The notes beneath the pieces are model-generated. The model saw only the letters and a list, made by a program, of their open reading frames with translations. It searched no databases and was not told the origin of the DNA. This document shows positions 3,869 to 45,136 of a stretch of DNA of 48,763 nucleotides, one piece after another. The stretch's first letter is position 1; each line of letters starts with the position of its first letter. This DNA is from a virus. Made by a program: the position numbers and the translations under genes. The stretch is from positions 1 to 48,763 of IMG/VR virus record IMGVR_UViG_3300043640_000055, one strand, 5' to 3'.

Positions 3869-3879
3869 CCTGACTTCTC
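3869..3879 (+). repeat. CCTGACTTCTC motif, copy A (extended identity actgtctcctgacttctc with copy B; gttgatgtg at 3901-3909)
   Basis: Read directly; intergenic. Confidence 0.9.
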
Positions 3880-3975
3880 AGAAGCCTAAGCGTTCTCAGT
3901 GTTGATGTGTTTCAATTGATCACCGAACAACCTGATACGGCATCGCGATCACCTAACTACGGAGAGGGCTGCACA

Positions 3976-4173
3976 ATGCACATCGAATTCGGACCCAGCG
4001 AGCGGATTTTGCCAGAGGTCGTCTGGAACCACATTGACGGCCCCCTCATGTATTTGAGCAACCATCAGCTTCATTGGCTGACATGGCGCGAGCGGCTGGC
4101 GCTATGGCTTGGCTTCTCGACCTTGGAAGCGGTTGATGACGATTACGTCTCGGGCCGCAAGCGGAATTGGTGA
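3976..4173 (+). CDS. Hypothetical protein (65 aa)
   Basis: ATG 3976 preceded by GGAGAGGG; sits inside the track ORF 3907..4173. Confidence 0.45.
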   Translation: MHIEFGPSERILPEVVWNHIDGPLMYLSNHQLHWLTWRERLALWLGFSTLEAVDDDYVSGRKRNW

Positions 4174-4189
4174 AGCGACCAAACTGTCT

Positions 4190-4200
4190 CCTGACTTCTC
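4190..4200 (+). repeat. CCTGACTTCTC motif, copy B (gttgatgtgaatc at 4223-4235)
   Basis: Read directly; intergenic. Confidence 0.9.
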
Positions 4201-4259
4201 CAGTGTCGAAGCAAGTTAAGACGTTGATGTGAATCCTAAAACCGGGGCAATGAAATAGA

Positions 4260-4838
4260 ATGGCACGAAGGAAACGACAGCCTTACAACCCGGCAAAGGT
4301 ACATGACCGGCGAGCTACTGATCTACTGCGGAATGCTCAAGTCTCTCCGATCGAAGTAGACGACCCAATGGAACTAGGCGCCAAGCTCATGGTCATGAGA
4401 TCCACCAGGAACGACCCACTGGCGAATCTTCACGCCCGTAAATCGATCGATGAAGCGCAGTACGCCGGGGGTAGGGCTTTCCAGCAGGATTTCGAAACCG
4501 CGGAACGGGGGCCGAAGGCAATTGATCCATCCCAGCCGTATGTCGATTGCTCCCGCGTCGAGCGTGGCATCTCAGCGGCCATTAGCAAGGCGCTGGATGG
4601 CCTGACGAAAGCCCGCGATGAGCTGGGCCAGAACGGCGGGGCGCTCATGCATGACTTCCTAATTGAAGGCCTGAACGTCGTGGAGATCGGCATCAAGCGC
4701 GGCATGGTTTCGGAATTGGAGCTTAAGTATCTCGGCAAGAGGGTTCGGGAGTGTCTCGAATCTCTGGCTATCGTTTACGGGTATGCAATGCAGTGCCGCC
4801 GATCAGAGAAACCCCTTATTTCATTGAACAACTTGTAG
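4260..4838 (+). CDS. Putative regulatory protein; possibly a late-gene activator of the GafA/DUF6456-like type (tentative)
   Basis: 192-aa ORF and the last gene of the early arm. NDPLANLHARKSIDEAQYAGGRAFQQDFETAE resembles a motif I associate with alphaproteobacterial GTA/phage activators; this is from memory and unverified. Confidence 0.4.
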   Translation: MARRKRQPYNPAKVHDRRATDLLRNAQVSPIEVDDPMELGAKLMVMRSTRNDPLANLHARKSIDEAQYAGGRAFQQDFETAERGPKAIDPSQPYVDCSRVERGISAAISKALDGLTKARDELGQNGGALMHDFLIEGLNVVEIGIKRGMVSELELKYLGKRVRECLESLAIVYGYAMQCRRSEKPLISLNNL

Positions 4839-4882
4839 CATGAGCGCGTGGTTTGTGCTAGGAAAATCAGGAGGGAATTGCG

Positions 4883-5125
4883 ATGATGAGAGACGAAGCA
4901 CTTAAAAAATTGAAGTCGTGTAATCGCGGGCTTTGCATTTCTGATAAGTCGATGGAGGCCAGTCTTGACGGCTACGTCGCCCTCGGGATGCTCAAGCTGG
5001 ATGAGCCGAAGAGCATTGAGATGAGATTTTTTGATGCCTTCAACAATTTAAAGCCCGGCTTTCGACTTGCTGCGAACCTTCTGGGAGCCATTGATGCAGC
5101 TGGCCTCAAGGTCGTCGAGAAGTAG
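4883..5125 (+). CDS. Hypothetical protein (80 aa), lower-GC cassette
   Basis: AGGAGGG RBS 7 nt upstream. Locally AT-richer than its flanks. Confidence 0.5.
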   Translation: MMRDEALKKLKSCNRGLCISDKSMEASLDGYVALGMLKLDEPKSIEMRFFDAFNNLKPGFRLAANLLGAIDAAGLKVVEK

Positions 5126-5126
5126 C

Positions 5127-5270
5127 ATGAAGCCTAAGCGTGGAATTTGGTGCCCTCGTCACCCCGAAGAGAGGCTAGTTAAAATACATATGCCCAGCGG
5201 GAAGATTGATTTGCGTTGTCCTGGTTGCACGGCGGACAGAGTTGCCTCGATCCGGGTTTTGGAGAAATAG
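5127..5270 (+). CDS. Small Zn-ribbon protein (47 aa)
   Basis: ATG 5127 lies 1 nt after the upstream stop. Cysteine pattern CPRH...CPGC. Confidence 0.45.
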   Translation: MKPKRGIWCPRHPEERLVKIHMPSGKIDLRCPGCTADRVASIRVLEK

Positions 5271-5271
5271 C

Positions 5272-5811
5272 ATGTTAGACGGTTCAAGCATCCGAGCTGC
5301 GCGCGAAGCCAAGGGCATGACGCAAGCCGAATTGGCTGAAAAGATCGGCACGTCGCAGCAGACGGTTGACAAGATCGAGCGCGGCATCATGAAGCGCACC
5401 ACCTATCTGCCGGAGATTTATCAGGTGCTCGACATTGCCGAAACCGCTAAACCGGTTTCGACCAATGGCGGGCTTACCCCGCTAATGGTCCTCCGAACCA
5501 TCCTATGCGCCAACCCGACCGCAGAGCAGATATTGGCGGCGCTGGCGGCGAATGGGTTTAAGATTGTGCCTGAAAATGAAATGAGCGAGTGGGTCGATGT
5601 TGAAACGGAAAAGGACTGGCTTGACCCGCTGGCATTCGTCAACGAGATCATGAAGCGCCGTAAGGTTTCATCAACCGAACTGGCACGCGCGGCTGGCCTA
5701 GCGGCGTCTACGCTTAACAGGTGGCTGCGAAATGACGGTTCGGAGTCCCTGACCGTTCGCACCCTCCAGAAAATCAGGGAATGGGATCGAAGCCAAGGAG
5801 AGCAATCTTGA
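5272..5811 (+). CDS. XRE-family regulator with two HTH regions
   Basis: N-terminal REAKGMTQAELAEKIGTSQQTVDKIERG (HTH_3 type). C-terminal second HTH-like segment VSSTELARAAGLAASTLNRWLRN. Confidence 0.75.
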   Translation: MLDGSSIRAAREAKGMTQAELAEKIGTSQQTVDKIERGIMKRTTYLPEIYQVLDIAETAKPVSTNGGLTPLMVLRTILCANPTAEQILAALAANGFKIVPENEMSEWVDVETEKDWLDPLAFVNEIMKRRKVSSTELARAAGLAASTLNRWLRNDGSESLTVRTLQKIREWDRSQGEQS

Positions 5812-6020
5812 CCCCTGAGCAGAAAGCCGTCGCGTTCATCGCGAGGTGGGAGGCGGTTGTAGCCATGGTAACGACCGGGACTCCGATCGGGTTAGCGTTG
5901 GTGGCTAGCCTCGAAGATGACGACTGGGGACTCGTGTACGCGGCGACGACAAGACTCGTTAATGAAGTGGCGACCAAGCGGGCGACGGTTGTGCCATTTC
6001 CCAAGAAGCCCAGTGCATAA
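5808..6020 (+). CDS. Hypothetical protein (70 aa)
   Basis: TTG 5808 preceded by AGGAGAG and overlapping the upstream stop. The track offers 5781 as an alternative start. Confidence 0.4.
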   Translation: MTPEQKAVAFIARWEAVVAMVTTGTPIGLALVASLEDDDWGLVYAATTRLVNEVATKRATVVPFPKKPSA

Positions 6021-6044
6021 CCATACACCCCTGTACGTTGCCAC

Positions 6045-6072
6045 TTGACCGGTCCGACAAATCAGGTACATT
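6045..6072 (+). promoter_or_regulatory. Sigma70-like promoter TTGACC-N16-TACATT
   Basis: Read directly. Hexamers closely resemble the PL (TTGACC/TACATC) and PR (TTGACG/TACAGA) hexamers of this genome. Confidence 0.4.
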
Positions 6073-6078
6073 CACTAC

Positions 6079-6240
6079 CATCAAGTGATTTGCGGCTTCG
6101 GTCGCTCAACAGCTTCCCCCATCCGAATATCAACCCTTAGGGTCGAGAGCCCGTGAAAGATCGGACCGCGAAAGCGGGGTAGGGTGGGGGAACATAAAAC
6201 AGAGCCGCCCCGAGGTCCATCCTCGCCGGGCGGCTTTTTG
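6079..6240 (+). ncRNA. Candidate ~160-nt structured sRNA (no family assigned)
   Basis: No credible ORF on the + strand. UUCG-capped hairpin GCGGC-UUCG-GUCGC at 6092-6105, GAAA-capped hairpin CCGC-GAAA-GCGG at 6166-6177, and a strong intrinsic terminator at the 3' end. Confidence 0.35.
6203..6240 (+). terminator. Rho-independent terminator
   Basis: Stem agccgccc/gggcggct with inner stem cgagg/cctcg, followed by TTTTT. Confidence 0.75.
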
Positions 6241-6276
6241 CGGGTCTTGGCCATCGGATTGGCTGGCGCTCTCGTT

Positions 6277-6286
6277 ATGTGCACAT
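6277..6286. repeat. Perfect 10-bp palindrome ATGTGCACAT (operator-half-site-like)
   Basis: Read directly. Same ATGTGCA heptamer as in the PL/PR operators. Confidence 0.85.
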
Positions 6287-6299
6287 GACGGTTTTGCCT

Positions 6300-6326
6300 A
6301 GGGTTCGAGTCCCTTCGCCCGCTCCA
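6300..6326 (+). other. Orphan tRNA-Gly-like 3' fragment (T-arm plus acceptor plus CCA), not a complete tRNA
   Basis: agggttcgagtcccttcgcccgctcca is near-identical to the 3' end of E. coli tRNA-Gly(CCC) as I recall it (AGGGTTCGATTCCCTTCGCCCGCTCCA). No D or anticodon arm can be folded upstream. Confidence 0.6.
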
Positions 6327-6358
6327 AGGCTTTTGCGTTCAACCCATGGGAGATTGAG

Positions 6359-6493
6359 ATGAACTCCAATAAACCGCTAAGCAGATATTATCTGGCCCGG
6401 ATGGCGTCTGATGATCGTAGGGCGGCTGAAGCCAAGCGCCGATACGCTGAAGAGCGCGGTCTCAACCCGATCACACTGAAGCCGCTCGGCTAA
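6359..6493 (+). CDS. Small protein (44 aa)
   Basis: GGGAGA RBS. MNSNKPLSRYYLARMASDDRRAAEAKRRYAEERGLNPITLKPLG. Confidence 0.4.
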   Translation: MNSNKPLSRYYLARMASDDRRAAEAKRRYAEERGLNPITLKPLG

Positions 6494-6555
6494 TTCAATC
6501 TCACACCGCATTGGCTGAAGCGGATTAACGGTCACCCAATCATTGGAGTCGTGGG

Positions 6556-6663
6556 ATGATGTTTTCGATTGGGCTAATCGCTGGCTTTGTGGCTGGTGTT
6601 ATCGGCTTCGCCGCGTTTGTGGCGTGGGTAAGGAAGAGTCCGCCGAATTTCCTGCCTTGGTGA
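6556..6663 (+). CDS. Micro membrane protein (35 aa, 1 TM)
   Basis: GGAG 7 nt upstream. MMFSIGLIAGFVAGVIGFAAFVAWVRKSPPNFLPW. Confidence 0.4.
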   Translation: MMFSIGLIAGFVAGVIGFAAFVAWVRKSPPNFLPW

Positions 6664-6726
6664 AGCCTCGGGACTGCAAGCTGAACGATGACAGCAGAGA
6701 CAAACTGGCTGGTGAGGTGAATCGGA

Positions 6727-6885
6727 ATGACAGACAACGTGATTTTTGGCGTCGACTTCAAAGCTAAAGCTGAGAAGGAGCGGGAAGAGCAAAAGCCGCT
6801 GACTGGCGATCCGTGCATCGACGTTCCGGAGAACTGCCCGTGCGAGACGGTCGTTTATTTCGCGCCGGAAACGGATCCAGCCTAA
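6727..6885 (+). CDS. Small acidic Cys-containing protein (52 aa)
   Basis: GGTGAGG upstream. MTDNVIFGVDFKAKAEKEREEQKPLTGDPCIDVPENCPCETVVYFAPETDPA. Confidence 0.4.
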   Translation: MTDNVIFGVDFKAKAEKEREEQKPLTGDPCIDVPENCPCETVVYFAPETDPA

Positions 6886-6924
6886 CCAATTTAGGGGCGT
6901 GCATCACACTTCCCGGAGTGAACA

Positions 6925-7110: not shown

Positions 7111-7124
7111 TACAAACATCTGAT

Positions 7125-11492: not shown

Positions 11493-11515
11493 CCCGATCC
11501 GAACAATTCGATCTG

Positions 11516-11545: not shown

Positions 11546-11555
11546 TGGAGTTAAC

Positions 11556-14611: not shown

Positions 14612-15595
14612 ATGACTGTCTATTCCAACTATCCGAACGGTTTCGCCAATGGCGTGACCATGAAAAGCCTGCCTATCCTGCAGACCAATCCCGGCAAGGT
14701 GTTCTGGGTTTCGAACGTCACGACCGGCCTTTTGCAGGGCCAGCGCGGCGGCTCTGACGGTAACCGCGGCACTTTCGACAGCCCGTTCTCATCGCTGAAC
14801 TACGCAATCTCTCAGTGCGTCGCGAACCGTGGTGACATGATCTTCATCAAGCCGGGCCATGCGGAATCGATCATCTCCGCAACCGCGCTGAACTTCAATA
14901 TCGCTGGCGTGCAGATTCGCGGCCTCGGAACCGGATCAAACCGCCCAACGTTCACGTTCACGACGGCCAACACGGCGACCATCCCGGTATCGGCCAACAA
15001 TATGTCGATCTCGGGTTGCCTGTTCGTCGGCAATTTCCTGTCGATCGCATCGGCCTTCACGGTCGCGGCGGCTGCGGATTTCGAGGTTGACGGCAACGAG
15101 TTCCGCGATACCAGCGCAATCCTCGGCTTCCTGTCGATCGTCACCACGACGGTTTCGGTTAACTCGGATGGCCTGCGCTACACCAACAACATCCGCAAGT
15201 CCGACGCGACCACCACGCCGGGGCCTGATGTCGTTGTCGCCAACACCATGAGCCGGCTGAAGGTCAACGGCAACAAGACCGTTCATACCGTGGCATCAAA
15301 CAACATTGCGGCCCTGCTGGAGCATGGCGCGCTTGTGATGACGGATGCGGAAGTCGTCGGCAATTACGTCTATTCGGTCAACACCGATACGGCGACCGGC
15401 GCCATCCTGGTGAAGACCACGGCCACGACCGGATCGGGCATCATCGCTCACAACCGGATCAGAGCGCTGGACGTGGCGGCGGCGATCATCGTGCCGAGTG
15501 CTGCTGTGCAGTACGGCATGTTTGACAACCTCTACATCGGCGACGGCACGCAGAATTCGGGCTTCCTCCTGCCCGCAATCGGCACCGACTCCTAA
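14612..15595 (+). CDS. Right-handed beta-helix (pectate-lyase-fold) virion protein; tailspike/depolymerase-like
   Basis: ATG 14612 after GGGAGA. N-terminal GTFDSPFSSLNYAISQCVANRGDMIFIKPGHAE followed by repetitive beta-helix-type segments. Confidence 0.65.
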   Translation: MTVYSNYPNGFANGVTMKSLPILQTNPGKVFWVSNVTTGLLQGQRGGSDGNRGTFDSPFSSLNYAISQCVANRGDMIFIKPGHAESIISATALNFNIAGVQIRGLGTGSNRPTFTFTTANTATIPVSANNMSISGCLFVGNFLSIASAFTVAAAADFEVDGNEFRDTSAILGFLSIVTTTVSVNSDGLRYTNNIRKSDATTTPGPDVVVANTMSRLKVNGNKTVHTVASNNIAALLEHGALVMTDAEVVGNYVYSVNTDTATGAILVKTTATTGSGIIAHNRIRALDVAAAIIVPSAAVQYGMFDNLYIGDGTQNSGFLLPAIGTDS

Positions 15596-15646: not shown

Positions 15647-16036
15647 ATGGCTAATACCATCACCAAGACAACCATTCTCGACGGCCCGCGCAACTTCGTC
15701 CTGCTGCTCAACATCTCGGGCGACGGCTCGGGCGATGAAACCAACACCAATATCTTTACCCGCGCGTCGTTTGCCCCGACGACCGGGACGGAAATCGTCA
15801 TTGAAAAGGTCGCGGGCAATCTGAACGGCTTTACCGCAACGCTGATTTTCGACGCCACGACTGATCTGCCCGTCGTGTCATGCCCGGCCACTTGGTTCGA
15901 ATACGACTGGAAATGCTTTGGCGGGGTGTCTTCGAACAAGGCCGGTGCCGGGGCTGCTGGCGACATTCTCCTGTCCACGGTTGGGCTCGGCTCTGGCGAG
16001 AAGGGCACGATCATGATTGAGTTGAAGAAGATCTGA
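15647..16036 (+). CDS. Small virion-associated protein (129 aa)
   Basis: ORF track; GGGAG RBS. Confidence 0.55.
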   Translation: MANTITKTTILDGPRNFVLLLNISGDGSGDETNTNIFTRASFAPTTGTEIVIEKVAGNLNGFTATLIFDATTDLPVVSCPATWFEYDWKCFGGVSSNKAGAGAAGDILLSTVGLGSGEKGTIMIELKKI

Positions 16037-17991
16037 TGACCAAGATCAGCGAACTTCCGGCAGGGGCTACACCGGACGGAACGGAGAAAGTCCCCGTCCT
16101 TCAGGGCGGCGCGACTGTCGCGCTGACGGCGGCGCAAATTGGGACATCTCCAGTAGGGCGGCCGTTCGTCATGCTGGTTACGGGGCAATCAAACCCTGTT
16201 CATGAACCGACCTTTGCAAACTCGCCCAACGCCAACGCGACGCGCTGGAATAACGCTCTCGGCACCGAGGGCAGCGTAGGGACGGCATACGCCGCACTCC
16301 CAACGACCACCATCAATGTCGGCGACAAGATCGCATCGGACGTTGCGGACGCTTTTACCATCAGGCCGGTGAAGGTCATCAATATCAGTTCCTCTGGGCA
16401 ACCCATCGCGCAATGGTTGTCGGGGGCAAGTACAGCGGGTGCCCTAGTAGACGTTTACGCGGAAATTCAGGCCAACATCGCTGCGGCGCTTGCTGCGGCG
16501 GGCGTCACGAAAATTGACGCCTTCGTGTGGTGGCAGGGCGAGAGCGATACTTCAAACGCTTCCTACGTCGCCAACTTCGCCACGATGATGACGCGGTTCT
16601 GGACCAACTCATGGTTCCCGCAGGAAACGCCAGTTCTGATATTCGGCATCGCGCCGACCTCGATCAGTGGCGATGTTGGGTCCAACAAGGTCAACAATTA
16701 TCTGCAAGCTATTGTTGGCGCGGACTCCGACAAGCGCAAATTCGTTTATACTGGCGCGCTTTCCGCCGCTGGTTACTGGGTCGATACCCTGCACATGACA
16801 GGGCAAGGCTATTATTCAGCGGGCGCGATGGCATCAGGCGCTTTCCTCAATGGTGTTGGTCGCGCGTCGTTTCAAGGTGTTATCCTCGATCCCGTAACCG
16901 GTTTCATGACCATCGGCTATCCGGTGACGCCGGATGCCCGCGTGACGATCTCGGGTAATACAGGGCTAAAGACCGGAGCAGCCGGAGCGGCAGTCCACGC
17001 TGCTGGAGCAGACGGCACTACTCAATCTTTCTTCTTTGATGCCTTCGGCGGATCGAACGCTTTAGTCTCTCGTCGTTGGGATGGCACATTCGACAGCTCA
17101 TTAGCCGTTGGCGCGGCCTTGCAGATATGGAGTTCGCAAGGATACGCATGGGATGGCTCAACGATTGCCAGCGCCGTCGCGACATTCGACGCTCTGACGG
17201 TTAATGCACAATCCGGTTCCGATCACAGCACGCGATACCGGATGCGCCTGACGCCGACGGGCAGCACCGCGCTTGCGGAGTATTTCAGTTTCGATCCTGG
17301 ATTTTTGACCATCTATGGCAAAACTTCGGGAAGCGTGAAGTTCGCGGTTCCGGATGTCGCTGGATCGAACACGATCACATGGCCTGCGGGGACGACGAAT
17401 TTCTCGGCGACCGGCGGAACATCTCAGGTGGTCAAGCAAACCGCCGCTGGCGGTGCGCTCACTGTCGGGCAGCTCGCCTTCTCGGATATCTCCGGAGCGG
17501 CCAATCTTACGTCTCAGGCAACGGGAACGCTCCCTGTCGCAAATGGCGGCACGGGCGTCACAACGACTGCTGCCGAGCAGGCCCGCATGTCCATTGGCAT
17601 GATGAGGGTGTCTATCACTGGCGTGAATTTCAATTCGGCCAATACCGACAATGTCATTGTGCTCCAGATGCCGAGCGACAGCACGCGGTTTTCGATTTAT
17701 CGCGCGTTGATCTACCATGCCTCGGGAACGCTTACGACCTCCACTGTCGGACTTTATACAGCGTCCAGCGCTGGTGGGTTGGCGCTGATACCGGCGGCGA
17801 CAGCCGTCACGGTGTCAACCGCAGCTGACGCGACGGCGAACAATGGACAGAGCATAACAGGCGCAAACTTCGGAACGACCGTAGTAGCCGCGTCTATGGC
17901 GACCCCGAATACGATATATTTTCGCATTCAAACCCCGCAGGGGGCGGCCCAAACGGCAGACATATTGATCGATTATTTCACGATGCCGTAG
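16036..17991 (+). CDS. Tail fibre with SGNH/sialate-O-acetylesterase-like (DUF303-type) domain
   Basis: N-terminal ISELPAGATPDGTEKVPVLQ fibre motif. LVTGQSNPV and FVWWQGESDTSN match the GQSN / WxQGESD esterase signature. Confidence 0.75.
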   Translation: MTKISELPAGATPDGTEKVPVLQGGATVALTAAQIGTSPVGRPFVMLVTGQSNPVHEPTFANSPNANATRWNNALGTEGSVGTAYAALPTTTINVGDKIASDVADAFTIRPVKVINISSSGQPIAQWLSGASTAGALVDVYAEIQANIAAALAAAGVTKIDAFVWWQGESDTSNASYVANFATMMTRFWTNSWFPQETPVLIFGIAPTSISGDVGSNKVNNYLQAIVGADSDKRKFVYTGALSAAGYWVDTLHMTGQGYYSAGAMASGAFLNGVGRASFQGVILDPVTGFMTIGYPVTPDARVTISGNTGLKTGAAGAAVHAAGADGTTQSFFFDAFGGSNALVSRRWDGTFDSSLAVGAALQIWSSQGYAWDGSTIASAVATFDALTVNAQSGSDHSTRYRMRLTPTGSTALAEYFSFDPGFLTIYGKTSGSVKFAVPDVAGSNTITWPAGTTNFSATGGTSQVVKQTAAGGALTVGQLAFSDISGAANLTSQATGTLPVANGGTGVTTTAAEQARMSIGMMRVSITGVNFNSANTDNVIVLQMPSDSTRFSIYRALIYHASGTLTTSTVGLYTASSAGGLALIPAATAVTVSTAADATANNGQSITGANFGTTVVAASMATPNTIYFRIQTPQGAAQTADILIDYFTMP

Positions 17992-18018
17992 GCCTCACCA
18001 AACGCCCTTCATAATCTC
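17980..18018 (+). repeat. 39-bp perfect direct repeat, copy 1 (acgatgccgtaggcctcaccaaacgcccttcataatctc)
   Basis: Read directly. Spans the last codons and stop of the esterase fibre gene plus 27 nt identical to the reverse-complemented 3' end of gene 27610..27804. Confidence 0.95.
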
Positions 18019-26125: not shown

Positions 26126-27535
26126 ATGGCCGGACGTTTCAATAACCCGTTTCCTCAGTTCTTCGATTCATCGCCCAACGTCTATTCGGGCGGGAAGCTG
26201 TATTTCTACGCTTCTGGCACGTCCACGCCGCTTTCCACCTATACCACGAAAGCACTGGCGGTCGCCAATACTAACCCGGTTGTGCTCAATTCTGCCGGGC
26301 GTCCATCGACCGATATCTTCCTTCAGGACCTCGAATACAAGGTCGTCCTGAAGGACGTTAACGACGTGGTGATCTGGACCGCTGATCCGGTATCCCATCG
26401 CGATTCCGCCTTGGTGGCAAAGACCCTGACCGGGAACGGCTCTCCCAACGGGGCTGTGGCTGGCACAGCGGGCTCGGCAAGCATTCTGCCGGACTTCTAT
26501 TGGGATTATACCAACTCGGTTCTGTACGTCTGTACGGCCACGGGAACGGCTTCAACAGCGGTCTGGACAGCGGTTAATGCGTCTTCGGCCACGGCTGCTG
26601 TTCCGCCTCCGCAGGGGAGATTGACGCCGGTATCTGGCGCCAGCGTTATTTCTTCGGACGCAACATCTGTCACGGCCATCTATTATACGCCCGTCGTCGG
26701 AAATCTGGTCCCGATCTATAACGGAGCTTCGATGATCCCGACCGAGTTCTCAGAACTCACGCTGACACTGGCAGCAAGCCATGCGCTCAATACGATCTAT
26801 GACGTGTTCGTGTTTTCCAATTCCGGAGTTCTCACGCTGGCAACTGGTCCGGCATGGAATACGTCAACGGCAGGATCAGGAGCGCGGGGGACGGGAGCCA
26901 GCACCACGCAGATTGCGCGGGTCAAAGGTCTTTATGTTAACGCCGTCTCCATGACGGGCCGGAATGGTGCGAACACATACACGATCGGGGCTAACCTCGC
27001 GACCTATCTTGGTTCGATCTTCATTGATGGCACGGCGGGACAGGTGACCTGTCATACGTCTTACGGGCAGTCGCGAAAGTGGGGAGTGTGGAACGCCTTC
27101 AACCAACGGCAAATCCTCCTTAAGGCAGGGGATGCTACGGCGTCATGGGCGACGGCCACCGCCACATGGCGGCAGTCGCGAGCCGACGCCACGAATTTTG
27201 CGATGGCGTTCACTGGTTTAGCGGACGGCACCGTCACTGCAATGTTCGAGCAATACGTAACTCTCGCCATGGGTAACAATACGCCAGAGGCCAATATCGG
27301 CATCGGGATAAACTCGACGACGGTCCTGTCCGGGCAACTTGGAGGCGCGATGCTGTCGGATAATATCTCCGGCGTCTTCTTTATGAATGCCAATTTGGTT
27401 GCCAAAACCGATCTGGTTCCATCCCTCGGCGCCAACCAGTTCAACATGATCGAGCAGGCGCCGACCGTTTCTGCGAGCAGCACATACAACGGCGGTTCAT
27501 CCAAAATGCGGATGGACCTGTCCTATCCGGGCTAA
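26126..27535 (+). CDS. Tail fibre / receptor-binding protein (second set)
   Basis: N-terminal FFDSSPNVYSGGKLYFYASGTSTPLSTYT...NPVVLNSAGRP...YKVVLKDVNDVVIWTADPV is a common phage fibre N-domain pattern. Confidence 0.7.
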   Translation: MAGRFNNPFPQFFDSSPNVYSGGKLYFYASGTSTPLSTYTTKALAVANTNPVVLNSAGRPSTDIFLQDLEYKVVLKDVNDVVIWTADPVSHRDSALVAKTLTGNGSPNGAVAGTAGSASILPDFYWDYTNSVLYVCTATGTASTAVWTAVNASSATAAVPPPQGRLTPVSGASVISSDATSVTAIYYTPVVGNLVPIYNGASMIPTEFSELTLTLAASHALNTIYDVFVFSNSGVLTLATGPAWNTSTAGSGARGTGASTTQIARVKGLYVNAVSMTGRNGANTYTIGANLATYLGSIFIDGTAGQVTCHTSYGQSRKWGVWNAFNQRQILLKAGDATASWATATATWRQSRADATNFAMAFTGLADGTVTAMFEQYVTLAMGNNTPEANIGIGINSTTVLSGQLGGAMLSDNISGVFFMNANLVAKTDLVPSLGANQFNMIEQAPTVSASSTYNGGSSKMRMDLSYPG

Positions 27536-27594: not shown

Positions 27595-27633
27595 ACGATG
27601 CCGTAGGCCTCACCAAACGCCCTTCATAATCTC
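27595..27633 (+). repeat. 39-bp perfect direct repeat, copy 2
   Basis: Identical to 17980..18018. Carries an orphan ...TMP-stop fibre end next to the real 3' end of the minus-strand gene 27610..27804. Confidence 0.95.
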
Positions 27634-37057: not shown

Positions 37058-37099
37058 ACACCGAGAGGGTCGGCGGTTCGAATCCGTCGCCGCCTACCA
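37058..37099 (+). other. attP core candidate: tRNA 3'-end-like segment (variable loop, T-arm GGCGG-TTCGAAT-CCGTC, acceptor GCCGCCT-A-CCA)
   Basis: Read directly. No matching 5' half upstream, so it is a fragment. Its last 6 nt overlap the integrase stop region. Isotype not assignable by eye. Confidence 0.6.
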
Positions 37100-38389
37100 G
37101 TTAACAAGTTGAAGATGCGAAGGTTTTTCATTTTTCCTTGCCCCAATTCTAGCCAGTTCATTACGATTCAATCGAACTTCAATAGCGAATAGCCGCCTTG
37201 AGCACTTGGTCTGCAACTGTTGCATGACGAAATCCGTCGCCAGTGCCACGTCCGCCAAGTACTCCGGATCGAACGCCTCGTAATTGTCCGTCGTCCGGGA
37301 GCCCTCCTTGACGGCATGGCCCATCCAGAGCGAGCGCTGCTCACGGGTGACGCCGCGGCACAGCCGCTTGACCATCGTCGGCATGAAATGTCGGAAGCAG
37401 CCCGGCGTCAGCCCGGCCTTGCCGATCGCCTTCTTGACGCTGGCGACCTGTTCGCCCTGATAGACCAGCAGCGGGCCATCGCCCCATTTGTCCAGCCAGC
37501 CGCCAAGGCACCGGGTTTCCGTGATCGTCGGCCGGCGCTTGTTGGTCTGCGCCCGGTCGGCCTGGTTGAGATAGATCAGGCCGTTCTCGCGCTGGGCCTT
37601 GGGGTCGAACTCCGCGACGGCCTCGGGCCTCGCCCATGTGTTCAAGGCGATGATCGCGAACCGGAATAGGTGTTCGTGCTTGAGGGCGTCCAGCGCCGCC
37701 GCCATGGCTTCTATCGATAGCTTGTTGTGGCGCGGCATGGATGCTGGGATTTTCAGATCCTTCGCAATCCGGCCGCGCTTGTAGACGAACTTCGGAGCGT
37801 GCGTCATCAGGGCGGTTTCAACGTCCTGTCCGAACGGATCCTTGCGTAGCTTGATCTCGGTCATCTCATTGAAGGCTGCGCAGATCACGTCCAGCCGCCG
37901 CTCGATCGATGCCGGCGTGTGGCCGAACTTGTCGGACAGCCATTTGGAAAACTCAAGCTGCCGGGCTGGCGTCCAGAACGATACTGGCGCCATCGGGTTT
38001 TTGACGTGCTCATTGAGGTATTGCTTGGCAAGGTCGCAGGCCCGGTCAGCATCCGACGAACTGCGTATCGTCGTGGCGTGGCCGTCCAGATAATTAGTGA
38101 GCGCGGCCACCGTCATGATTCGATCAGGACCGGGGATTGCCCCGTCTTTGGTGGCGGGGGCGGAAAGGACGAGGGCAGCGAGCGCGGTTTTGCCCGCCTC
38201 CCAATCCGTTGTGCCAAGAGTGCGACGGCGGACAACGCCAGCTCCGGAGTCATACCGGCAGGCATAGACGAATCCCCCTCGGGTGGGGTGGGGACGGTCG
38301 AGATAGAAGCCGCCGATTTCAAAGGGATCGTCGGCGCCTGGGGCGGAAACGGGTTTAACGGGCTCTCCTGCTGGCTTGGCGCGGCGCAT
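37094..38389 (-). CDS. int: Tyrosine integrase
   Basis: N-terminal arm-type segment FYLDRPHPTRGGFVYACRYDSGAGVVRRRTLGT. Catalytic-region elements ALNTWARPEAV, CFRHFMPT, LWMGHAV and RTTDNYEAF. ATG 38389 is preferred over 38449. Confidence 0.85.
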   Translation of the reverse strand: MRRAKPAGEPVKPVSAPGADDPFEIGGFYLDRPHPTRGGFVYACRYDSGAGVVRRRTLGTTDWEAGKTALAALVLSAPATKDGAIPGPDRIMTVAALTNYLDGHATTIRSSSDADRACDLAKQYLNEHVKNPMAPVSFWTPARQLEFSKWLSDKFGHTPASIERRLDVICAAFNEMTEIKLRKDPFGQDVETALMTHAPKFVYKRGRIAKDLKIPASMPRHNKLSIEAMAAALDALKHEHLFRFAIIALNTWARPEAVAEFDPKAQRENGLIYLNQADRAQTNKRRPTITETRCLGGWLDKWGDGPLLVYQGEQVASVKKAIGKAGLTPGCFRHFMPTMVKRLCRGVTREQRSLWMGHAVKEGSRTTDNYEAFDPEYLADVALATDFVMQQLQTKCSRRLFAIEVRLNRNELARIGARKNEKPSHLQLVNW

Positions 38390-38652
38390 GGTTTCCCCTT
38401 CAGGTACGTCCGATCGATGTAATCCTGCACCTGTTCGGCGGTGTAGCAAGGGCCATCACGGAAGCCGTAGAACTGAATTAGCTCTTTTCGGCGTGCTTTC
38501 CGCAGTTCTTTGGCCGTCAGCATGGGCCACCGGGCCGTCACTTCGGCCTCGGAAAGATAATCGGATGGAGGGATTGCCCGGGTCAACTTTCCCTCTCCCG
38601 TATATTTTCGGGGGTGGGAGGGTTCACCGCACCAGCCAGATTGCTTCGGCAA
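38113..38652 (-). CDS. Excisionase-like HTH ORF; its 3' ~277 nt overlap int out of frame
   Basis: LSEAEVTARWPMLTAKELRKARRKELIQFYGFRDGPCYTAEQVQDYIDR resembles Xis/AlpA-type HTH. A likely GTG start at 38541 follows GAGG-N5. No stop occurs until 38113, where TGA overlaps an in-frame int ATG (ATGA). Confidence 0.4.
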   Translation of the reverse strand: MPKQSGWCGEPSHPRKYTGEGKLTRAIPPSDYLSEAEVTARWPMLTAKELRKARRKELIQFYGFRDGPCYTAEQVQDYIDRTYLKGKPCAAPSQQESPLNPFPPQAPTIPLKSAASISTVPTPPEGDSSMPAGMTPELALSAVALLAQRIGRRAKPRSLPSSFPPPPPKTGQSPVLIES

Positions 38653-38662
38653 TCATCGGTCA

Positions 38663-38977
38663 TCATGGAGCGGAGCCTGCTTCACCGCTTGCGAACGGGT
38701 CGAGGCAGTGGCATTCCGCCGTGCCTTCCTCGCACTTTTGATACCGGGGGCAGTCGCTTTTTCGAGACGACTCCGCAGGCGGATTTGCGGCTAACGACAT
38801 TTGGTAAAACGGAAGCTTGCGCTCTTTGCGAAGCGTGTTGGCAACTTCGCCGCGTCCATAATTCATGAGCCAGCTATTGCGCCCGTCGTGTCCTGCCGGA
38901 AGTTGAAGGATGAGATTTTCGGCCCACTTCTGCCGGTCCATCCCGCTTTGAATTTCTGCTGCCGTTTCGTAGCTCAT
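38663..38977 (-). CDS. Hypothetical protein (104 aa)
   Basis: ATG 38977 after AGAGAGGG. C-terminal CPRYQKCEEGTAECHC. Confidence 0.5.
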   Translation of the reverse strand: MSYETAAEIQSGMDRQKWAENLILQLPAGHDGRNSWLMNYGRGEVANTLRKERKLPFYQMSLAANPPAESSRKSDCPRYQKCEEGTAECHCLDPFASGEAGSAP

Positions 38978-38999
38978 GGTGAAGCCCTCTCTAATGTTG

Positions 39000-39010
39000 C
39001 CTGACTTCTC
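39000..39010 (+). repeat. CCTGACTTCTC motif, copy E
   Basis: Read directly. Lies 23 nt upstream (leftward sense) of ATG 38977, on the opposite strand. Confidence 0.9.
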
Positions 39011-39026
39011 AGGCGTTGAAGCAATC

Positions 39027-39266
39027 TCAGGTGTCGCGCTGAATCGTCTCGTGTGTTGGAAGCGCAGCACGGCCGGCGGGGGTGATGCCGACGTAGCGGG
39101 CTGGGATGTCGTCGCCAATTACATAGCCGCCCGCGAATAAAGCCCTGACAACCCGTGGCTGAACACACAGGCTGTAAAAAATATGGCTAGTGGTCCTGCC
39201 ACTCGGAAGACCTGCCAAGTAGGTCAGAATCCGCACTTGGTTATCGCTCAGTTTCCCCTTGCTCAT
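39027..39266 (-). CDS. Hypothetical protein (79 aa), possibly winged-helix
   Basis: ATGA-coupled. LSDNQVRILTYLAGLPSGRTTSHI. Confidence 0.5.
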   Translation of the reverse strand: MSKGKLSDNQVRILTYLAGLPSGRTTSHIFYSLCVQPRVVRALFAGGYVIGDDIPARYVGITPAGRAALPTHETIQRDT

Positions 39267-40698: not shown

Positions 40699-40752
40699 AT
40701 CGACCTCCACACGGGGCCAGCGCCACGTCCCTGGTGGGTTGAGATTTGGGGG

Positions 40753-41423: not shown

Positions 41424-41424
41424 G

Positions 41425-41877: not shown

Positions 41878-41878
41878 G

Positions 41879-42565
41879 TCAGGCTGCTTTCTTTCCTGCG
41901 TCGCGACGATTCGTGACGGCTTGTTTGAGGGCGTCGATTTGACTCTGGTCGAGCTGGTGCTTGCGGCGGGCGTCTTTCTGTTCGTCGGACATCCACCACG
42001 CGACAACCTCTTCTGGGTTCATCGCGGCGATAGCGTCCCGGCAGTCCACCATGAAATCGACGCGGGCCGTGAAATCGTCAGGCAGGATGGATTGCTTCTG
42101 CGCGCCGGGCTTTGCCGGCTTGCTATCGTCAATGACATTGACTTGCTGCTTGTCGTAAAGCGCCAGCCCAAAGGGATTGCCGAACGTCATCAGGGCGCGC
42201 TTCATGGCGTCCGTCTCAGCTTCCTTGAGCGCGCTTTCGTGTGCCTGACCTAGATCCCGGTCAATGCCATGCCCGGCGCCGCAGCCTTCGCGGCAGACGT
42301 TGCCGACCATGACGCGAACCTTGACGATGTACGTCACTCCGAATCCGGTAGCGCCTGACTGTCCGATAGAGCGCTCGCCTTCGGAAACGCACTTGATGTC
42401 GATCGTCTCGCGGGTCCAGCCATCAAAGCCAAAAATACGGTTGGCCTCTTCAACAGCTTTCCAGCCCTCGATATAGCTGACCTCACGTCCACCCTGCTTG
42501 CGGGTTTTGACGAGTGACGACGAAAGGGGAGCCGCCAGCGCGGCCTTTTGGGTTTCGTCAAGCAT
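41879..42565 (-). CDS. Rad52/Rad22-family single-strand annealing protein
   Basis: [26 protein letters not shown]...[27 protein letters not shown]. Confidence 0.8.
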
Positions 42566-43326
42566 CACAGCTTCCTTTCGCTGGTTGCGCGAACGCCGGG
42601 GGGCAGTTCGCCGTGAAGTTTGCGGTAATCGCGGGCGGCGCTCAGAATGGCGTCGCGGACTTTATCGTTAGGCCCGATCGCCTTGAGGGCGAGGCCGTAG
42701 CTGTCCAGGTGCAGCGTTTCGACGGTACGGAGCGAGGCGGAACGATCGAACCCGCCGCCAATCTTGACTTTGGTGTCCCGCTCGGCACGGGCGGCAAAGC
42801 GCGACTGGCGCTCAAACTCTTCGAAGGCGTCATCGGCTTGCTTGGTGACTTCCGCCACATCCACAACCTCGCCGGCCTTCGCGTTCGCCAATGCCTCAGC
42901 TTCCTTGGCCTCGGCTTCGCGGGCGGCCCGCTCGGCTTCCTCTTGGGCAAGGCGCGCAATCTCGGCTTCGCGCGCGCGGCGCTGTTCTTCCTTGATCATG
43001 AAGGCGGCAACGCGGGCTTTAAGCTCGATCACGATCTTGTCGAACAGGCCGGGCTTTTTCTTATCGACGTTATGCAGAGCCTTATATTTGGCGTTGATGG
43101 CGTCTACTGTGTCATTTAGCGGTCGCACCTTGCCGTCACGCTCGGCCTCAACCTCTTCAAGAGAGGCTTTGGCGCGATCCAGGAACGGCTTTGCCTCGCG
43201 GGCCTGATCTTCTGTCTCGACTGTCGGGTGATCCGAAAGCCAAGCGTTGATGTCGTCAATGACGCTCTGAGCGTGATCGATGGGGCCGGGTGGGTTGTTG
43301 GAGCCGATGCGAGCAAGGTTAGGCAT
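42565..43326 (-). CDS. Coiled-coil protein with N-terminal NNPP motif (253 aa)
   Basis: ORF track. Central Glu/Ala/Arg-rich helix. Confidence 0.6.
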   Translation of the reverse strand: MPNLARIGSNNPPGPIDHAQSVIDDINAWLSDHPTVETEDQAREAKPFLDRAKASLEEVEAERDGKVRPLNDTVDAINAKYKALHNVDKKKPGLFDKIVIELKARVAAFMIKEEQRRAREAEIARLAQEEAERAAREAEAKEAEALANAKAGEVVDVAEVTKQADDAFEEFERQSRFAARAERDTKVKIGGGFDRSASLRTVETLHLDSYGLALKAIGPNDKVRDAILSAARDYRKLHGELPPGVRATSERKL

Positions 43327-43630
43327 GTTGAACGACCCTCAATTTCGGAAGCGGGAACTCGCCACGCTCCATGCGGATTTCGGTAATGATGGCGTCCACT
43401 CGCGCTTTGATCGACCAAAGCTCGCCTTCCTCTTTTGCGACGAAGGGAGCGGAGATGGGATCAAGCCGGAGCTTGTAAAGCTCTGCACTGGCAAGCCAGC
43501 AATCGCGAACGGCGCGGGCAACCTTGTCTTGGGCGATTTCCCGAGGCGTCAAAGGTTCTTCGCCCATGTCGTCTTCCATGATGCGACGGATCGTTTCGAG
43601 ATCCTGATGTAGCTCTGACATTTTAGACAT
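43319..43630 (-). CDS. Hypothetical protein (103 aa)
   Basis: ATG 43630. The longer track ORF is an out-of-frame extension over the upstream gene. Confidence 0.5.
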   Translation of the reverse strand: MSKMSELHQDLETIRRIMEDDMGEEPLTPREIAQDKVARAVRDCWLASAELYKLRLDPISAPFVAKEEGELWSIKARVDAIITEIRMERGEFPLPKLRVVQHA

Positions 43631-43955
43631 TTGACGGCTCCTGCGGTAACGCGGTCCAAAACTTGGCGTCGTCCAACTCGGCGGTGAAATCCGCGTCCAT
43701 GCAAACCCATTGGAAGCCGTCGAAATCCGCGCCTTCCTGGGTCTCGATTTTCTTTCCGTCCTCCCACCACGCCTCACACCAGCCAGTGGCCAGCTTGACC
43801 AGCACAGGCTCGCCATTGAACGGCGCTCCGTCAGGCAGGACGATATTTCCCTTCTCGTCGAAGTCGTAGGTGACCGGCCTTACCGAGGGCTCCGCTGCCG
43901 CCTGACTTCTCGGTGCCGAAGCCTGTTTGCTGTCGATGTGAATCAGATCAGACAT
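43623..43955 (-). CDS. Hypothetical protein (110 aa), DUF551-like C-terminal region (tentative)
   Basis: ATG 43955. PVLVKLATGWCEAWWEDGKK. The N-terminus contains motif copy C, translated as SAPRSQ. Confidence 0.5.
   Translation of the reverse strand: MSDLIHIDSKQASAPRSQAAAEPSVRPVTYDFDEKGNIVLPDGAPFNGEPVLVKLATGWCEAWWEDGKKIETQEGADFDGFQWVCMDADFTAELDDAKFWTALPQEPSNV
43901..43911 (+). repeat. CCTGACTTCTC motif, copy C (tcgatgtgaatc at 43933-43944)
   Basis: Read directly. Lies inside a minus-strand coding region. Confidence 0.9.
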
Positions 43956-44061
43956 GCGCGCCACTCCAAATAGTCGCCGCTAAAACAATGATGTTGACGA
44001 GAAGGGTTACCGCTACGGTTTGAGCGATAATCTGGTTTGTTGATTGGGGAGGGGAGATCAT
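43948..44061 (-). CDS. Micro membrane protein (37 aa)
   Basis: ATGA-coupled upstream and overlapping the downstream start. MISPPQSTNQIIAQTVAVTLLVNIIVLAATIWSGAHV. Confidence 0.4.
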   Translation of the reverse strand: MISPPQSTNQIIAQTVAVTLLVNIIVLAATIWSGAHV

Positions 44062-44498
44062 GGCGCCGTTTCCCACTCGTAAGAATCGCGGGTTTCAACG
44101 CTCTCGCGCCCGTCGTATTCGTCGATCCGGTATTGCGTCCCGGACGGAATTTCCGTGATACGAATTTCCGCGCATTGACCGTTCGCCTTTTTGCCAAGCT
44201 CCTCGATCACTTGGATAAGGTGCGGGTCGGCGCGATCGTTCCGCACGTCATAGGAAGACCAATAGCTGTCGTTGGAAAACACTGGCGTGGTGCAGTAGTG
44301 CACCATGAACGCTTCTGCCGCCTCTTGATCGGTCGCGCGTCGATATCGCTCAGGCGAGCTAATAGGCTTCTTGCCAGCCAGCCGGTCGTCCACGAAGCAA
44401 TAAAGCTTCAGGTCCTTGAGTTCGGCGTAACGCATGATCCCGGCGTGGCTAAGACCGAAGCCACCAAAGCATGCGTTGTAAGCAATCTTCGACATCAC
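44058..44498 (-). CDS. Hypothetical protein (146 aa)
   Basis: ORF track. MSKIAYNACFGGFGLSHAG-type conserved phage N-terminus. Confidence 0.6.
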   Translation of the reverse strand: MMSKIAYNACFGGFGLSHAGIMRYAELKDLKLYCFVDDRLAGKKPISSPERYRRATDQEAAEAFMVHYCTTPVFSNDSYWSSYDVRNDRADPHLIQVIEELGKKANGQCAEIRITEIPSGTQYRIDEYDGRESVETRDSYEWETAP

Positions 44499-44827
44499 AC
44501 CGTCTCCCCGTGTTTGCGGAGGTCGCGGGCGTGGTCCCGGTTGAAGAAATGGCGCTGTTCGGCGGGAGACGTTTCGGCTAACGCGGATGCGATCGGCTCC
44601 ATGCAGTTTGCGAGGCTGGCGTCTGCGATAATTTCTTTGGAAATATCTTCGATGTAGTTCCCATCAACGAACTTGACGAAGGCGATGGTGTTGCGCCCCT
44701 CCTTCAAGATATTGCTGGCCTGTTCGACAATCGCCCGGCGCGTCAACTCGGGCTGGCACACCGCCTCGAAACCCATCGGGCCGTGCGGACCTTTGCCGTA
44801 GTCGATCATGAGAATGTAGAACTGCAT
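44495..44827 (-). CDS. Hypothetical protein (110 aa)
   Basis: ORF track; ATGA-coupled. Confidence 0.55.
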   Translation of the reverse strand: MQFYILMIDYGKGPHGPMGFEAVCQPELTRRAIVEQASNILKEGRNTIAFVKFVDGNYIEDISKEIIADASLANCMEPIASALAETSPAEQRHFFNRDHARDLRKHGETV

Positions 44828-44836
44828 TGCCCGCTC

Positions 44837-45136
44837 CTACAGGTTGGCTTCGAGGGCTTTTTCAGCGCGACTCTTTGGAGGTTGCTGCCCGTCGAAAGTT
44901 TTCATCCAAGCACTCAAAACCGGAACTGCTTTCTCGCGGCTGAGGCCGAATGTTTGGATGAGGTAGGGCACGGCGCCGAACATGTTGGTGACGCCGCTGT
45001 CGCGAAGCGCATCGAGAAATGCGAAGTAGGTGGTCAGCTTGCGGACGCTTACGCCCTTGATCAACGGCGGTGAGGCGGATGCCGTCGCATCCTGACTTCT
45101 CGGTGCTGAGCCTTGCTGGCTATTGCGCTGAAACAT
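44837..45136 (-). CDS. Hypothetical protein (99 aa)
   Basis: ORF track. The N-terminus contains motif copy D, translated as SAPRSQ. Confidence 0.5.
   Translation of the reverse strand: MFQRNSQQGSAPRSQDATASASPPLIKGVSVRKLTTYFAFLDALRDSGVTNMFGAVPYLIQTFGLSREKAVPVLSAWMKTFDGQQPPKSRAEKALEANL
45091..45101 (+). repeat. CCTGACTTCTC motif, copy D (16-nt identity cctgacttctcggtgc with copy C)
   Basis: Read directly. Confidence 0.9.

Follow-up and report, generated by a model that had tools for sequence, protein, structure and literature searches.

We analysed a 48,763-nt stretch of viral DNA, IMG/VR record IMGVR_UViG_3300043640_000055 (here the window, or W), in which an 11-mer, CCTGACTTCTC, recurs at positions 3869, 4190, 39000, 43901 and 45091; each copy is named by the start of its 11-mer (M3869 or W-3869, and so on). 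The 11-mer belongs to a longer multi-block cassette, a real cis-element that is conserved in related phages and had not been described before; together these uncultured temperate phages of alphaproteobacteria form a small clade. The cassette is most likely a regulatory promoter or operator. Bases 1-127 of the window are an exact duplicate of 48637-48763, and this 127-nt terminal identity means that the genome is a 48,636-bp circle (a circular or circularly permuted contig). The gene map was based on AT skew, Pfam matches and an independent gene call made for a Logan contig of identical sequence; frame analysis by GC content at third codon positions (GC3) discriminated genes poorly at 57% GC. 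The genes between about 47 kb and, across the origin, about 30 kb are directed rightward, whereas an operon directed leftward starts at about 45.4 kb and reaches as far as the integrase gene (37094-38449). The window encodes two HNH endonucleases, and the leftward operon holds genes for a Rad52-type annealase, SSB and Lar. Upstream of the operon lies an XRE repressor-like gene (45747-46310) with a strong minus-strand intrinsic terminator downstream of it (45494-45473). Between 45400 and 45500, the minus strand has a PL-like promoter of canonical form (TTGACC-N17-TACATC), and a perfect inverted repeat, CACATTC-N11-GAATGTG, overlaps it. This succession of XRE gene, terminator and promoter with inverted repeat resembles the lambda cI / terminator / PL-OL layout. 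The nearest cultured terminase is that of Brucella phages (48% identical) and a prophage homologue of the DUF6456 protein discussed below is present in Bradyrhizobium; judged from these two matches, the host is probably a member of the Hyphomicrobiales.

An exact scan of both strands of the window returned the five matches above, all on the plus strand, against a chance expectation for an 11-mer of about 0.02 and a mean of 0.00 in dinucleotide-preserving shuffles. The initial annotation, which had listed at least five copies on the plus strand only, is thereby borne out. Extending the window scan to one-mismatch variants added no site and no minus-strand copy, leaving a non-random motif without variants. 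Two-mismatch variants came to 10 extra sites versus 11.4 ± 3.6 expected, which is the chance level, so the site is either exact or absent, as expected for a specific recognition site. All 9- and 10-mer sub-words of the 11-mer favour the plus strand (5:0 or 5:1), and all five copies fall within one 13.8-kb arc of the non-structural region, from 39000 through the origin to 4190. Under random orientation, the two-sided probability of finding five of five on one strand is only 1/16. Flanking sequence is shared in pairs: 3869 and 4190 have ACTGTCTCCTGACTTCTC and GTTGATGTG in common, 43901 and 45091 have CCTGACTTCTCGGTGC in common and both read SAPRSQ on the minus strand, and GATGTGAATC is present at both 4190 and 43901. 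The sharing described earlier between copies A and B, C and D, and B and C agrees with this once C, D and E are taken to be 43901, 45091 and 39000, in that order.

The 11-mer, previously treated as the unit, proved to be one block of a cassette of about 46-65 bp. Alignment of the copies gives the layout [TGAAGC]-N13/14-CCTGACTTCTC-N6/7-GAAGC-N12-GCGCTGAATCA, or, in degenerate form, [T(G/A)(A/G)AGC]-N13/14-CCTGACTTCTC-N6/7-GAAGC-N12-G(C/A)(G/T)(C/G)TGAA(T/A)C(A). The register of the blocks is fixed within 1 nt (29 ± 1 nt from the 11-mer to GAA(T/A)C), while spacers and flanks vary. Of the 15 copies considered below, 14 contain the 10-mer CTGACTTCTC unchanged. Most copies are non-coding and stand at gene boundaries. 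An approximate dyad, CTTC-N9-GAAG, has both of its sides conserved in sequence and shows no covariation, a pattern more in line with protein binding than with an RNA.

Two of the window copies are sense to a rightward gene. W-3869 (3850..3914, plus strand) comprises TGAAGC at 3850-3855, CCTGACTTCTC at 3869-3879, TAAGC at 3887-3891 and GTTTCA at 3909-3914 (nhmmer E=3e-12). Its 3' blocks are degenerate, its TGAAGC contains the stop codon of the gene 3487-3852, and it is intergenic, upstream of a small gene starting near 3975. W-4190 (4171..4236, plus) comprises TGAAGC at 4171-4176, which holds the stop codon of the gene 3907/3975-4173, CCTGACTTCTC at 4190-4200, GAAGC at 4208-4212 and GAATCC at 4231-4236; it ends 23 nt before the ATG of a DUF6456 (GafZ-like) gene at 4260-4838.

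The remaining three are antisense to the leftward operon. W-39000 (38980..39046, plus) comprises TGAAGC at 38980-38985, CCTGACTTCTC at 39000-39010, GAAGC at 39018-39022 and GAATCG at 39041-39046, the last of these (block 3) overlapping the final codons of the minus-strand gene 39027-39266. Its 11-mer, read in reverse complement, is separated by 22 nt from the minus-strand ATG at 38976, which has the ribosome-binding site (RBS) GAGAGGG, in keeping with the earlier description of one copy (E) lying just upstream of, and antisense to, a minus-strand gene. The gene starting at 38976 heads a group made up of a 104-aa gene, an xis-like gene and the integrase gene. W-43901 (43901..43945, plus) has CCTGACTTCTC at 43901-43911, GAAGC at 43918-43922 and GAATCA at 43940-43945; it occupies codons 4-18 of the minus-strand gene 43955-43623 (110 aa) and gives rise to the N-terminal stretch MSDLIHIDSKQASAPRSQ, which is absent from homologues of the 110-aa protein, as these align only from residues 21-28 on. 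W-45091 (45071..45135, plus) has TGAGGC at 45071-45076, CCTGACTTCTC at 45091-45101, GAGCC at 45108-45112 and GAAACA at 45130-45135. It stands at the 5' end of the minus-strand open reading frame (ORF) 45136-44837 (99 aa as called), where it encodes ..GSAPRSQ; the presumed leftward early promoter is about 300 nt upstream of this copy. Homologues of this 99-aa protein measure 57-82 aa; their starts correspond to an in-frame TTG in the window, which lies 26 nt past the reverse-complemented 11-mer. The minus strand also has an incomplete cassette at 38619-38651, shortly before the xis-like ORF, which consists of blocks 2-3 alone (GAAGCAATCTGGCTGGTGCGGTGAA; nhmmer E=0.015). This sequence forms one arm of a 48-nt inverted repeat, 77% complementary, whose other arm is at 6674-6721 (plus).

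Altogether, 15 cassette copies were located in five metagenomic temperate phage genomes, the related contigs being compared on fetched parts of their sequences. Besides the five in W, there are four in Ga0137419_10000004 / IMGVR_3300015241_000004 (G), three good copies and one degenerate copy in QGNH01000526 / IMGVR_3300050131_000113 (Q), one in IMGVR_3300033075_000290 (K, locus L018) and one in IMGVR_3300044691_000044 (V, locus L258). The five genomes are mosaic relatives whose shared proteins are 45-85% identical; the similarity between W and L018, for example, ends at 3413 and restarts at the cassette. A loose pattern scan of IMG/VR gave mostly single chance matches, with three contigs as the only real relatives, and a metagenome scan returned the same contigs and nothing further. 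Scanning for blocks 2-3 without the 11-mer yielded about 120 chance matches in coding sequence and one new copy, with the core ACTGACTTCTC. In GTDB genomes, scanning with a strict pattern produced two chance matches, both in unrelated metagenome-assembled genomes. Among cultured phages, blastn gave no match to window 3300-5300, and the 60-nt cassette consensus found only chance partial matches in cultured phages and plasmids; a literature search for the 10-mer found primers only. Contigs with homologues of the 99-aa protein (L241-L245) are different phages that lack the cassette. One of them, the temperate L241, has a same-strand 12-mer of its own, GCTCAAGTAGAG, at 15119, 15495 and 15920, three times in 800 nt.

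In ten of the 15 copies the cassette occupies an intergenic stretch and faces the same way as the next gene, block 3 stopping 20-130 nt short of the start codon. The four copies in G all belong here and precede a membrane protein gene, an HNH-like gene (G6972), a small gene with an MT-A70 methyltransferase gene, and a GapR gene. In Q, the plus-strand copy Q-5821 precedes an MT-A70 methyltransferase gene and the copy in locus L141 a gene for a secreted protein. The K copy precedes a short MARTKR ORF and then a NusG (NGN) paralogue (Pfam E=1.1e-10), and the V copy precedes a DUF6456 (GafZ-like) gene. The gap between cassette and ATG is only 20-29 nt at three orthologous copies in three genomes (W-4190, L018 and L258). 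The other five copies are antisense, each at the 5' end of an opposite-strand gene. In addition to the three in W, these are Q-7436 (minus), whose reverse-complemented 11-mer ends 21 nt before an ATG, and the degenerate Q-5608 (5662-5608, minus), which encodes the N-terminal MNMIHIGTAQASAPSSQ. The motif is kept in related phages without a fixed coding context, its copies taking non-orthologous, mostly non-coding positions across the five genomes. W-43901, W-45091 and Q-5608 have their reverse strand translated in one common frame (..QASAP(R/S)SQ..) in otherwise unrelated proteins; because homologues of both window genes lack it, the peptide is a by-product of the DNA element and not the cause of its conservation. 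Contig Q shows two further arrangements: a 74-aa gene (L121 5605-5830) starts inside the degenerate inverted cassette and ends at a TGA inside the 11-mer of the next cassette (5821-5866), and the MT-A70 methyltransferase gene is flanked by the convergent cassettes 5821 (plus) and 7436 (minus).

Where relatives lack the cassette, the DUF6456 gene is preceded by a compact junction measuring about 30 nt and made up of a stop codon, AGCATCAC, GGGGCA(A/T) and then ATGGCACG. This motif was seen in L247, L250, L256, L263, L265, L268, L292 and L298, 30-60 nt before the DUF6456 start; the corresponding region of the window is 4171-4262. Against this compact arrangement, W-4190 looks like an added unit of about 65 nt. 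Close to gene starts, phages of this group repeatedly show the words GATCACC and ATCAC, the former of which has the same sequence as the 3' end of 16S rRNA and not its complement.

Comparison with established element classes gave the following results. No consensus sigma-70 site (TTGACA-N16-18-TATAAT, or the alphaproteobacterial CTTGAC-N17-CTATAT) was found at any copy in our scans; CCTGAC matches CTTGAC in 5/6 positions by eye, with nothing conserved 17 nt on. None of the window copies has the GC-rich hairpin and T run of an intrinsic terminator, and the G and K copies show a lineage-specific 8-bp stem with no T run. Structured RNA is likewise not indicated: Rfam returned 0 matches at its gathering thresholds and nothing but noise when E was relaxed to 10, the consensus fold from RNAalifold scored -1.4 kcal/mol with compensatory change in 0/6 pairs, and the only conserved pairing in the cassette is the sequence-invariant CTTC-N9-GAAG dyad. 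A tRNA-derived attachment site was rejected, as ARAGORN found no tRNA in the window and the spacing does not fit the geometry from anticodon arm to T-arm. So was a miniature inverted-repeat transposable element: the alignments show no terminal inverted repeats, and a possible 7-bp duplication (GATCACC) accompanies 1/15 copies (G5133). A role as three-frame stop signal fails because only two TGAs are constant. DnaA boxes (TTATCCACA or TGATCCACA, at most 1 mismatch) number 20 in the window versus 13.8 ± 3.8 expected, with 43901 the only cassette copy to contribute a match. The likeness to a Caulobacter-type DnaA box seen in the initial annotation is therefore not upheld: the counts are at chance level, and most copies read GCGCTGAATCA at that place, not TGTGAATCA (11/15 read GCGCTGAA(T/A)C, 3/9 positions off the DnaA-box consensus). 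In GcrA/CcrM promoters, GANTC occurs in the context YGAKTCK near -20 or at +2 to +30 of a sigma-70 promoter (PMC4647560). Here GANTC, as GAATC, is found in block 3 of 12/15 copies; the reverse strand of consensus block 3, TGATTCA, matches YGAKTCK in 6/7 positions, the last base being wrong. The window as a whole contains 91 GANTC sites versus about 181 expected from base composition.

With regard to strand, 13 of the 15 copies point along the terminase and late-gene direction and ten run in the same sense as the gene next to them; the three that lie within W's leftward operon all face right. Orientation thus follows the genome somewhat better than it follows the neighbouring gene. Contig Q, by comparison, has copies on the minus (5662-5608), plus (5821) and minus (7436) strands within 2 kb of a single rightward operon. 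Given the mixed orientations in Q, the probability of 1/16 in W and the non-independence of copies within a genome, strict polarity is not a property of the family. The constant orientation stressed in the initial annotation accordingly stands for the window (5/5) and for the majority overall (13/15), and fails as a strict rule. The argument it was used to make against an ordinary promoter is weak, since ten copies, including all four in Ga0137419, are placed sense upstream of a gene. On present evidence, the cassette is not a new kind of polarity signal. Among the roles proposed for it there, that of binding site for a phage regulator still comes first as a class of explanation, and a polarity signal for replication, packaging or recombination is one that we consider improbable.

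Three or four short invariant blocks in a fixed helical register, free spacers, a dyad and no near-misses give the cassette the look of a site for a double-stranded-DNA-binding protein. From its anatomy, conservation, placement at gene boundaries and lack of RNA structure we infer protein binding, promoter activity and a firing direction. We tentatively favour, at a little under even chances, a double-stranded DNA regulatory element that would act as an activator-dependent promoter firing from the 11-mer towards GAATCA. A sequence-specific protein would read the cassette; its activator or operator site would be formed by the 11-mer together with the CTTC-N9-GAAG dyad, with a centre near -40 to -50. 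GAAGC and GCGCTGAATC, 17-18 bp apart, would take roughly the -35 and -10 positions with no sigma-70 consensus, and transcription would proceed from CCTGACTTCTC towards GAATCA. GCTGAATC, 17-18 bp from GAAGC, agrees in 7/8 positions with GCtANAWC, the Caulobacter sigma-73 -10 consensus. Copies 3869 and 4190 would then drive rightward genes, among them the GafZ-like late regulator, and copies 39000, 43901 and 45091 would start rightward transcripts that oppose the leftward early operon. With only 20-29 nt between cassette and ATG in W-4190, L018 and L258, there is no room for a separate promoter, and since the phage's own PL-like promoter is canonical, the cassette would represent a different promoter class. 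The conservation of the cassette, the sense placement of ten copies and the look of W-4190 as an added unit also speak for this reading.

A close known parallel in arrangement would be the lambda CII-dependent promoters PRE, PI and PaQ, whose motif TTGC-N6-TTGC points in one direction whatever the local gene direction. In both systems several copies of one motif, here a putative activator site, lie beside poor core promoters in both arms of a temperate phage, some of them within genes or antisense, and the cassette has the family's features of a poor core promoter, an identical motif at a fixed distance and several copies, including in-gene and antisense ones. However, the motifs are unrelated, no CII-like activator was identified here, and the relative Q carries inverted copies; because the proposed firing direction is rightward, towards the late genes, the cassettes could not serve repressor or integrase expression. 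Other activator-dependent late or middle promoters, namely those of P2/P4 (Ogr/Delta, TGT-N12-ACA), Mu (C, Mor) and T4 (MotA box), share with the cassette an upstream element in place of a missing -35, a partial dyad and a handful of copies per genome, but their known copies are all sense to the operon they drive, whereas one third of the cassettes are antisense.

Several observations weigh against an activator-dependent promoter. Five of the 15 copies are antisense, three of them inside N-terminal codons, which a plain promoter of the neighbouring gene cannot explain, and the sense-to-antisense ratio of 10:5 does not differ significantly from random. The putative -10 (TGAATC) has a G at the critical -11 A position and the -35 is poor. 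In L018 (K), a start 7 nt past block 3 would cut the conserved GGGGCA Shine-Dalgarno-like motif. Placement at boundaries alone is no proof of a promoter, because a compact genome forces any 50-bp non-coding element there. Nor does any protein stand out as the activator. An all-versus-all ORF comparison of the five genomes, partly fetched, found no protein common to all; GapR is common to W, G and K, and an MT-A70 methyltransferase to G, Q and K. DUF6456 homologues were not found in the fetched sequence of the cassette-bearing contigs G, Q and K. Conversely, DUF6456 homologues occur at 74 viral loci (L246-L319), of which 73 lack the cassette and only L258 has one, and at least 24 of the 74 have a DnaA_C-like gene 2-3 kb upstream, only one of them (V) with a cassette.

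These counts bear on the two regulators that the window itself encodes. The first is the product of the DUF6456 gene (4260..4838, plus), which lies directly downstream of W-4190 at the head of the late region and may be a target of regulation. Among DUF6456 proteins it is a distant member (own Pfam E=0.03; a 65%-identical homologue reaches the Pfam cut-off), called at 156 aa by JGI, with homologues supporting the 192-aa start at 4260. The DUF6456 family is that of the GafA C-terminal region and of GafZ (PMC9638019). The second is a DnaA_C fusion ORF (48167..48763, continuing across the circular junction to 128-316, plus) with a Bac_DnaA_C domain (E=6.5e-20) and a weak GcrA-like helix-turn-helix (HTH; E=0.007). 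A search for loci related to the fusion protein found none, its only database homologue being P0168. A small gene with an NPPF motif, adenine methyltransferase-like (737-1330), adjoins the DnaA_C/GcrA-like gene. Because pairs of the two genes are frequent without the cassette, the DnaA_C and DUF6456 proteins are unlikely to be specific readers of the core. The earlier proposal of the DnaA-IV fusion protein as reader loses ground in particular, similar DnaA_C genes being common in relatives that lack the cassette. Further candidate readers encoded in the window are a double-XRE protein (5206-5811), the XRE protein (45747-46310) and a 63-aa protein (45363-45172). A host factor as reader would explain the invariance of the core across divergent phages.

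The alternative that survives best, unlikely yet far from negligible, is a protein site without a promoter of its own that works in either orientation (an operator, roadblock or architectural site), or else a passively recombined intergenic cassette; the co-orientation in the window would then be a small-sample effect or a legacy of duplication. A site read in either orientation agrees with the alternation of copies in Q, and CTTC-N9-GAAG could bind a dimer either way round. Passive spread is suggested by copies at mosaic junctions, such as the point where W/L018 similarity ends at 3413 and restarts at the cassette, by the resemblance of W-4190 to a 65-nt insertion into a compact junction and by the accessory, 'moron'-type genes that follow (MT-A70 methyltransferases, GapR, HNH, secreted and membrane proteins). 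A Rad52-type annealase with SSB, furthermore, can recombine short homologies. The PeSL mobile regulatory cassettes of T4-type phages, reportedly described by Arbiol et al. in 2010, are similar as short repeated intergenic cassettes at gene boundaries in plastic regions with shuffling of accessory genes; they differ in consisting of a recognisable early promoter and a stem-loop and in being gene-oriented, whereas the cassette has no consensus promoter or conserved hairpin. Passive spread is nevertheless hard to reconcile with the lack of terminal inverted repeats, with a target-site duplication in 1/15 copies only and with 13/15 copies along the terminase/late direction, which is above the prediction of random insertion, and it leaves the invariant 10-mer and the fixed register unexplained across phages with 45-85% identical proteins.

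A loading or pause site for an antiterminator, similar to ops/JUMPStart, lambda nut/qut or HK022 put, is distinctly unlikely. Such a site would be read during rightward transcription, on the non-template strand or in the RNA, and its polarity would follow the direction of a long rightward or late transcript around the circle. The position directly upstream of a NusG (NGN) paralogue in L018 and of a GafZ-type DUF6456 gene in W and L258, at the head of the late region before the terminase, is what this would predict, as is the co-orientation of 13/15 copies with late transcription; GafZ has been reported to be an antiterminator (PMC11150451). The short, invariant core also recalls ops/JUMPStart (RfaH) and the leader sites of other NusG paralogues, where a strand-specific core is set in a conserved element of about 40 bp ahead of long operons; one cassette likewise has a NusG-paralogue gene immediately after it. 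The cassette is, however, unrelated to GGCGGTAGCGTG, has mostly single accessory genes downstream, and in W, which has no NusG paralogue, is followed by a GafZ-like gene instead. Two Q copies are inverted within a rightward operon, the three copies in the leftward operon could be read only by antisense read-through, and 5/15 copies lie on the local template strand. Moreover, no RNA structure is conserved, different antiterminator types follow the same core, and 73/74 DUF6456 loci lack the cassette.

A genome-polar DNA-level signal, the idea of the initial annotation, would comprise strand-specific nick sites, replication or packaging signals, or Chi-like polarity, and we regard it as improbable. 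Its appeal lies in the single strand of all five window copies and in the better agreement with the terminase direction (13/15) than with gene direction (10/15). The exact 10-11-mer with fixed blocks also resembles the bipartite nick consensus of phiKMV-like phages, and the phage encodes two HNH endonucleases, with an HNH-like gene following G6972. The nick sites of T5 and phiKMV-like phages are, in the same manner, few, dispersed, exact and sometimes bipartite words on one strand, but those phages are virulent and nicked genome-wide, while here the phages are temperate, the copies lie in the early region and one relative has both orientations close together. The copies are limited to the non-structural region without iteron- or pac-type clustering, GC skew in the window reveals no replication polarity beyond the effect of gene orientation, a three-block element of at least 46 bp is unlike Chi, and the figure of 13/15 is an overstatement, since copies within a genome are not independent.

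A more specific regulatory scheme is highly improbable as a whole: the cassette would be the site of a GafY-type factor (DnaA-domain-IV / GcrA-like HTH) or of another late-commitment factor, methylation-sensitive via the GANTC in block 3, and its co-oriented promoters would activate the GafZ-like antiterminator while producing antisense transcripts against the leftward early/recombination/integrase operon. Like the GafY/GafZ system of the Caulobacter gene transfer agent (PMC11150451) and GafA of R. capsulatus (PMC9638019), the window has a protein pair of the type DnaA-domain-IV-like HTH plus DUF6456. One cassette copy lies directly upstream of the DUF6456 gene, and the promoters of those systems also have a degenerate -35. 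The cassette, however, shares nothing with the published elements YBE (ACTATG region) and ZBE (GCGCCCG-CTGGCGC) (PMC11150451; PMC9638019), and only 1 of at least 24 loci with both genes has a cassette. Last, a coding by-product or a chance or duplication remnant without function has next to no probability: 43901, 45091 and Q-5608 are translated in the same frame and 43901 and 45091 may be local duplicates, but ten copies are non-coding, the frame differs at 39000, the peptide-bearing proteins are unrelated and the window-gene homologues lack the peptide, chance expectation and shuffles give about 0.02 and 0.00, and conservation across five genomes at non-orthologous positions effectively refutes it.

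Other repeats are present in the window. A second family of about 60 nt, GTTTCAAT(C/T)GA..CCGAAC..GCGATCACC-N8-12-RBS-ATG, has six copies, with the word GCGATCACC at 3458 (plus), 3945 (plus), 28299 (plus), 31085 (minus), 35028 (minus) and 35860 (minus) and the element starting about 45 nt upstream of the word. All six are sense to the following gene, in both arms, and judged by this arrangement the family looks like a gene-oriented promoter or 5' leader family. It also occurs in locus L258 at about 4880-4940, and cassette copy 3869 is fused to one of its copies, the last block of W-3869 running into it (GTTTCAATTGA...GCGATCACC). In addition, an exact 39-nt direct repeat, ACGATGCCGTAGGCCTCACCAAACGCCCTTCATAATCTC, is located at 17980-18018 and 27595-27633, just after the late genes 16036-17991 and 26126-27535.

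The DNA targets of GafY/GafZ-type regulators are poorly defined, and a GafY motif could not be derived in the Caulobacter study (PMC11150451). If the cassette were the site of a GafY-type factor, it would constitute a phage-borne prototype of the gene-transfer-agent control circuit and would point to genome-wide promoter polarity as a means of early shut-off. If it is a regulated promoter or operator, it would provide a defined cis-element for uncultured alphaproteobacterial temperate phages with GafY/GafZ-type regulators: one short module reused at many gene boundaries, in both orientations, and even absorbed into protein N-termini.

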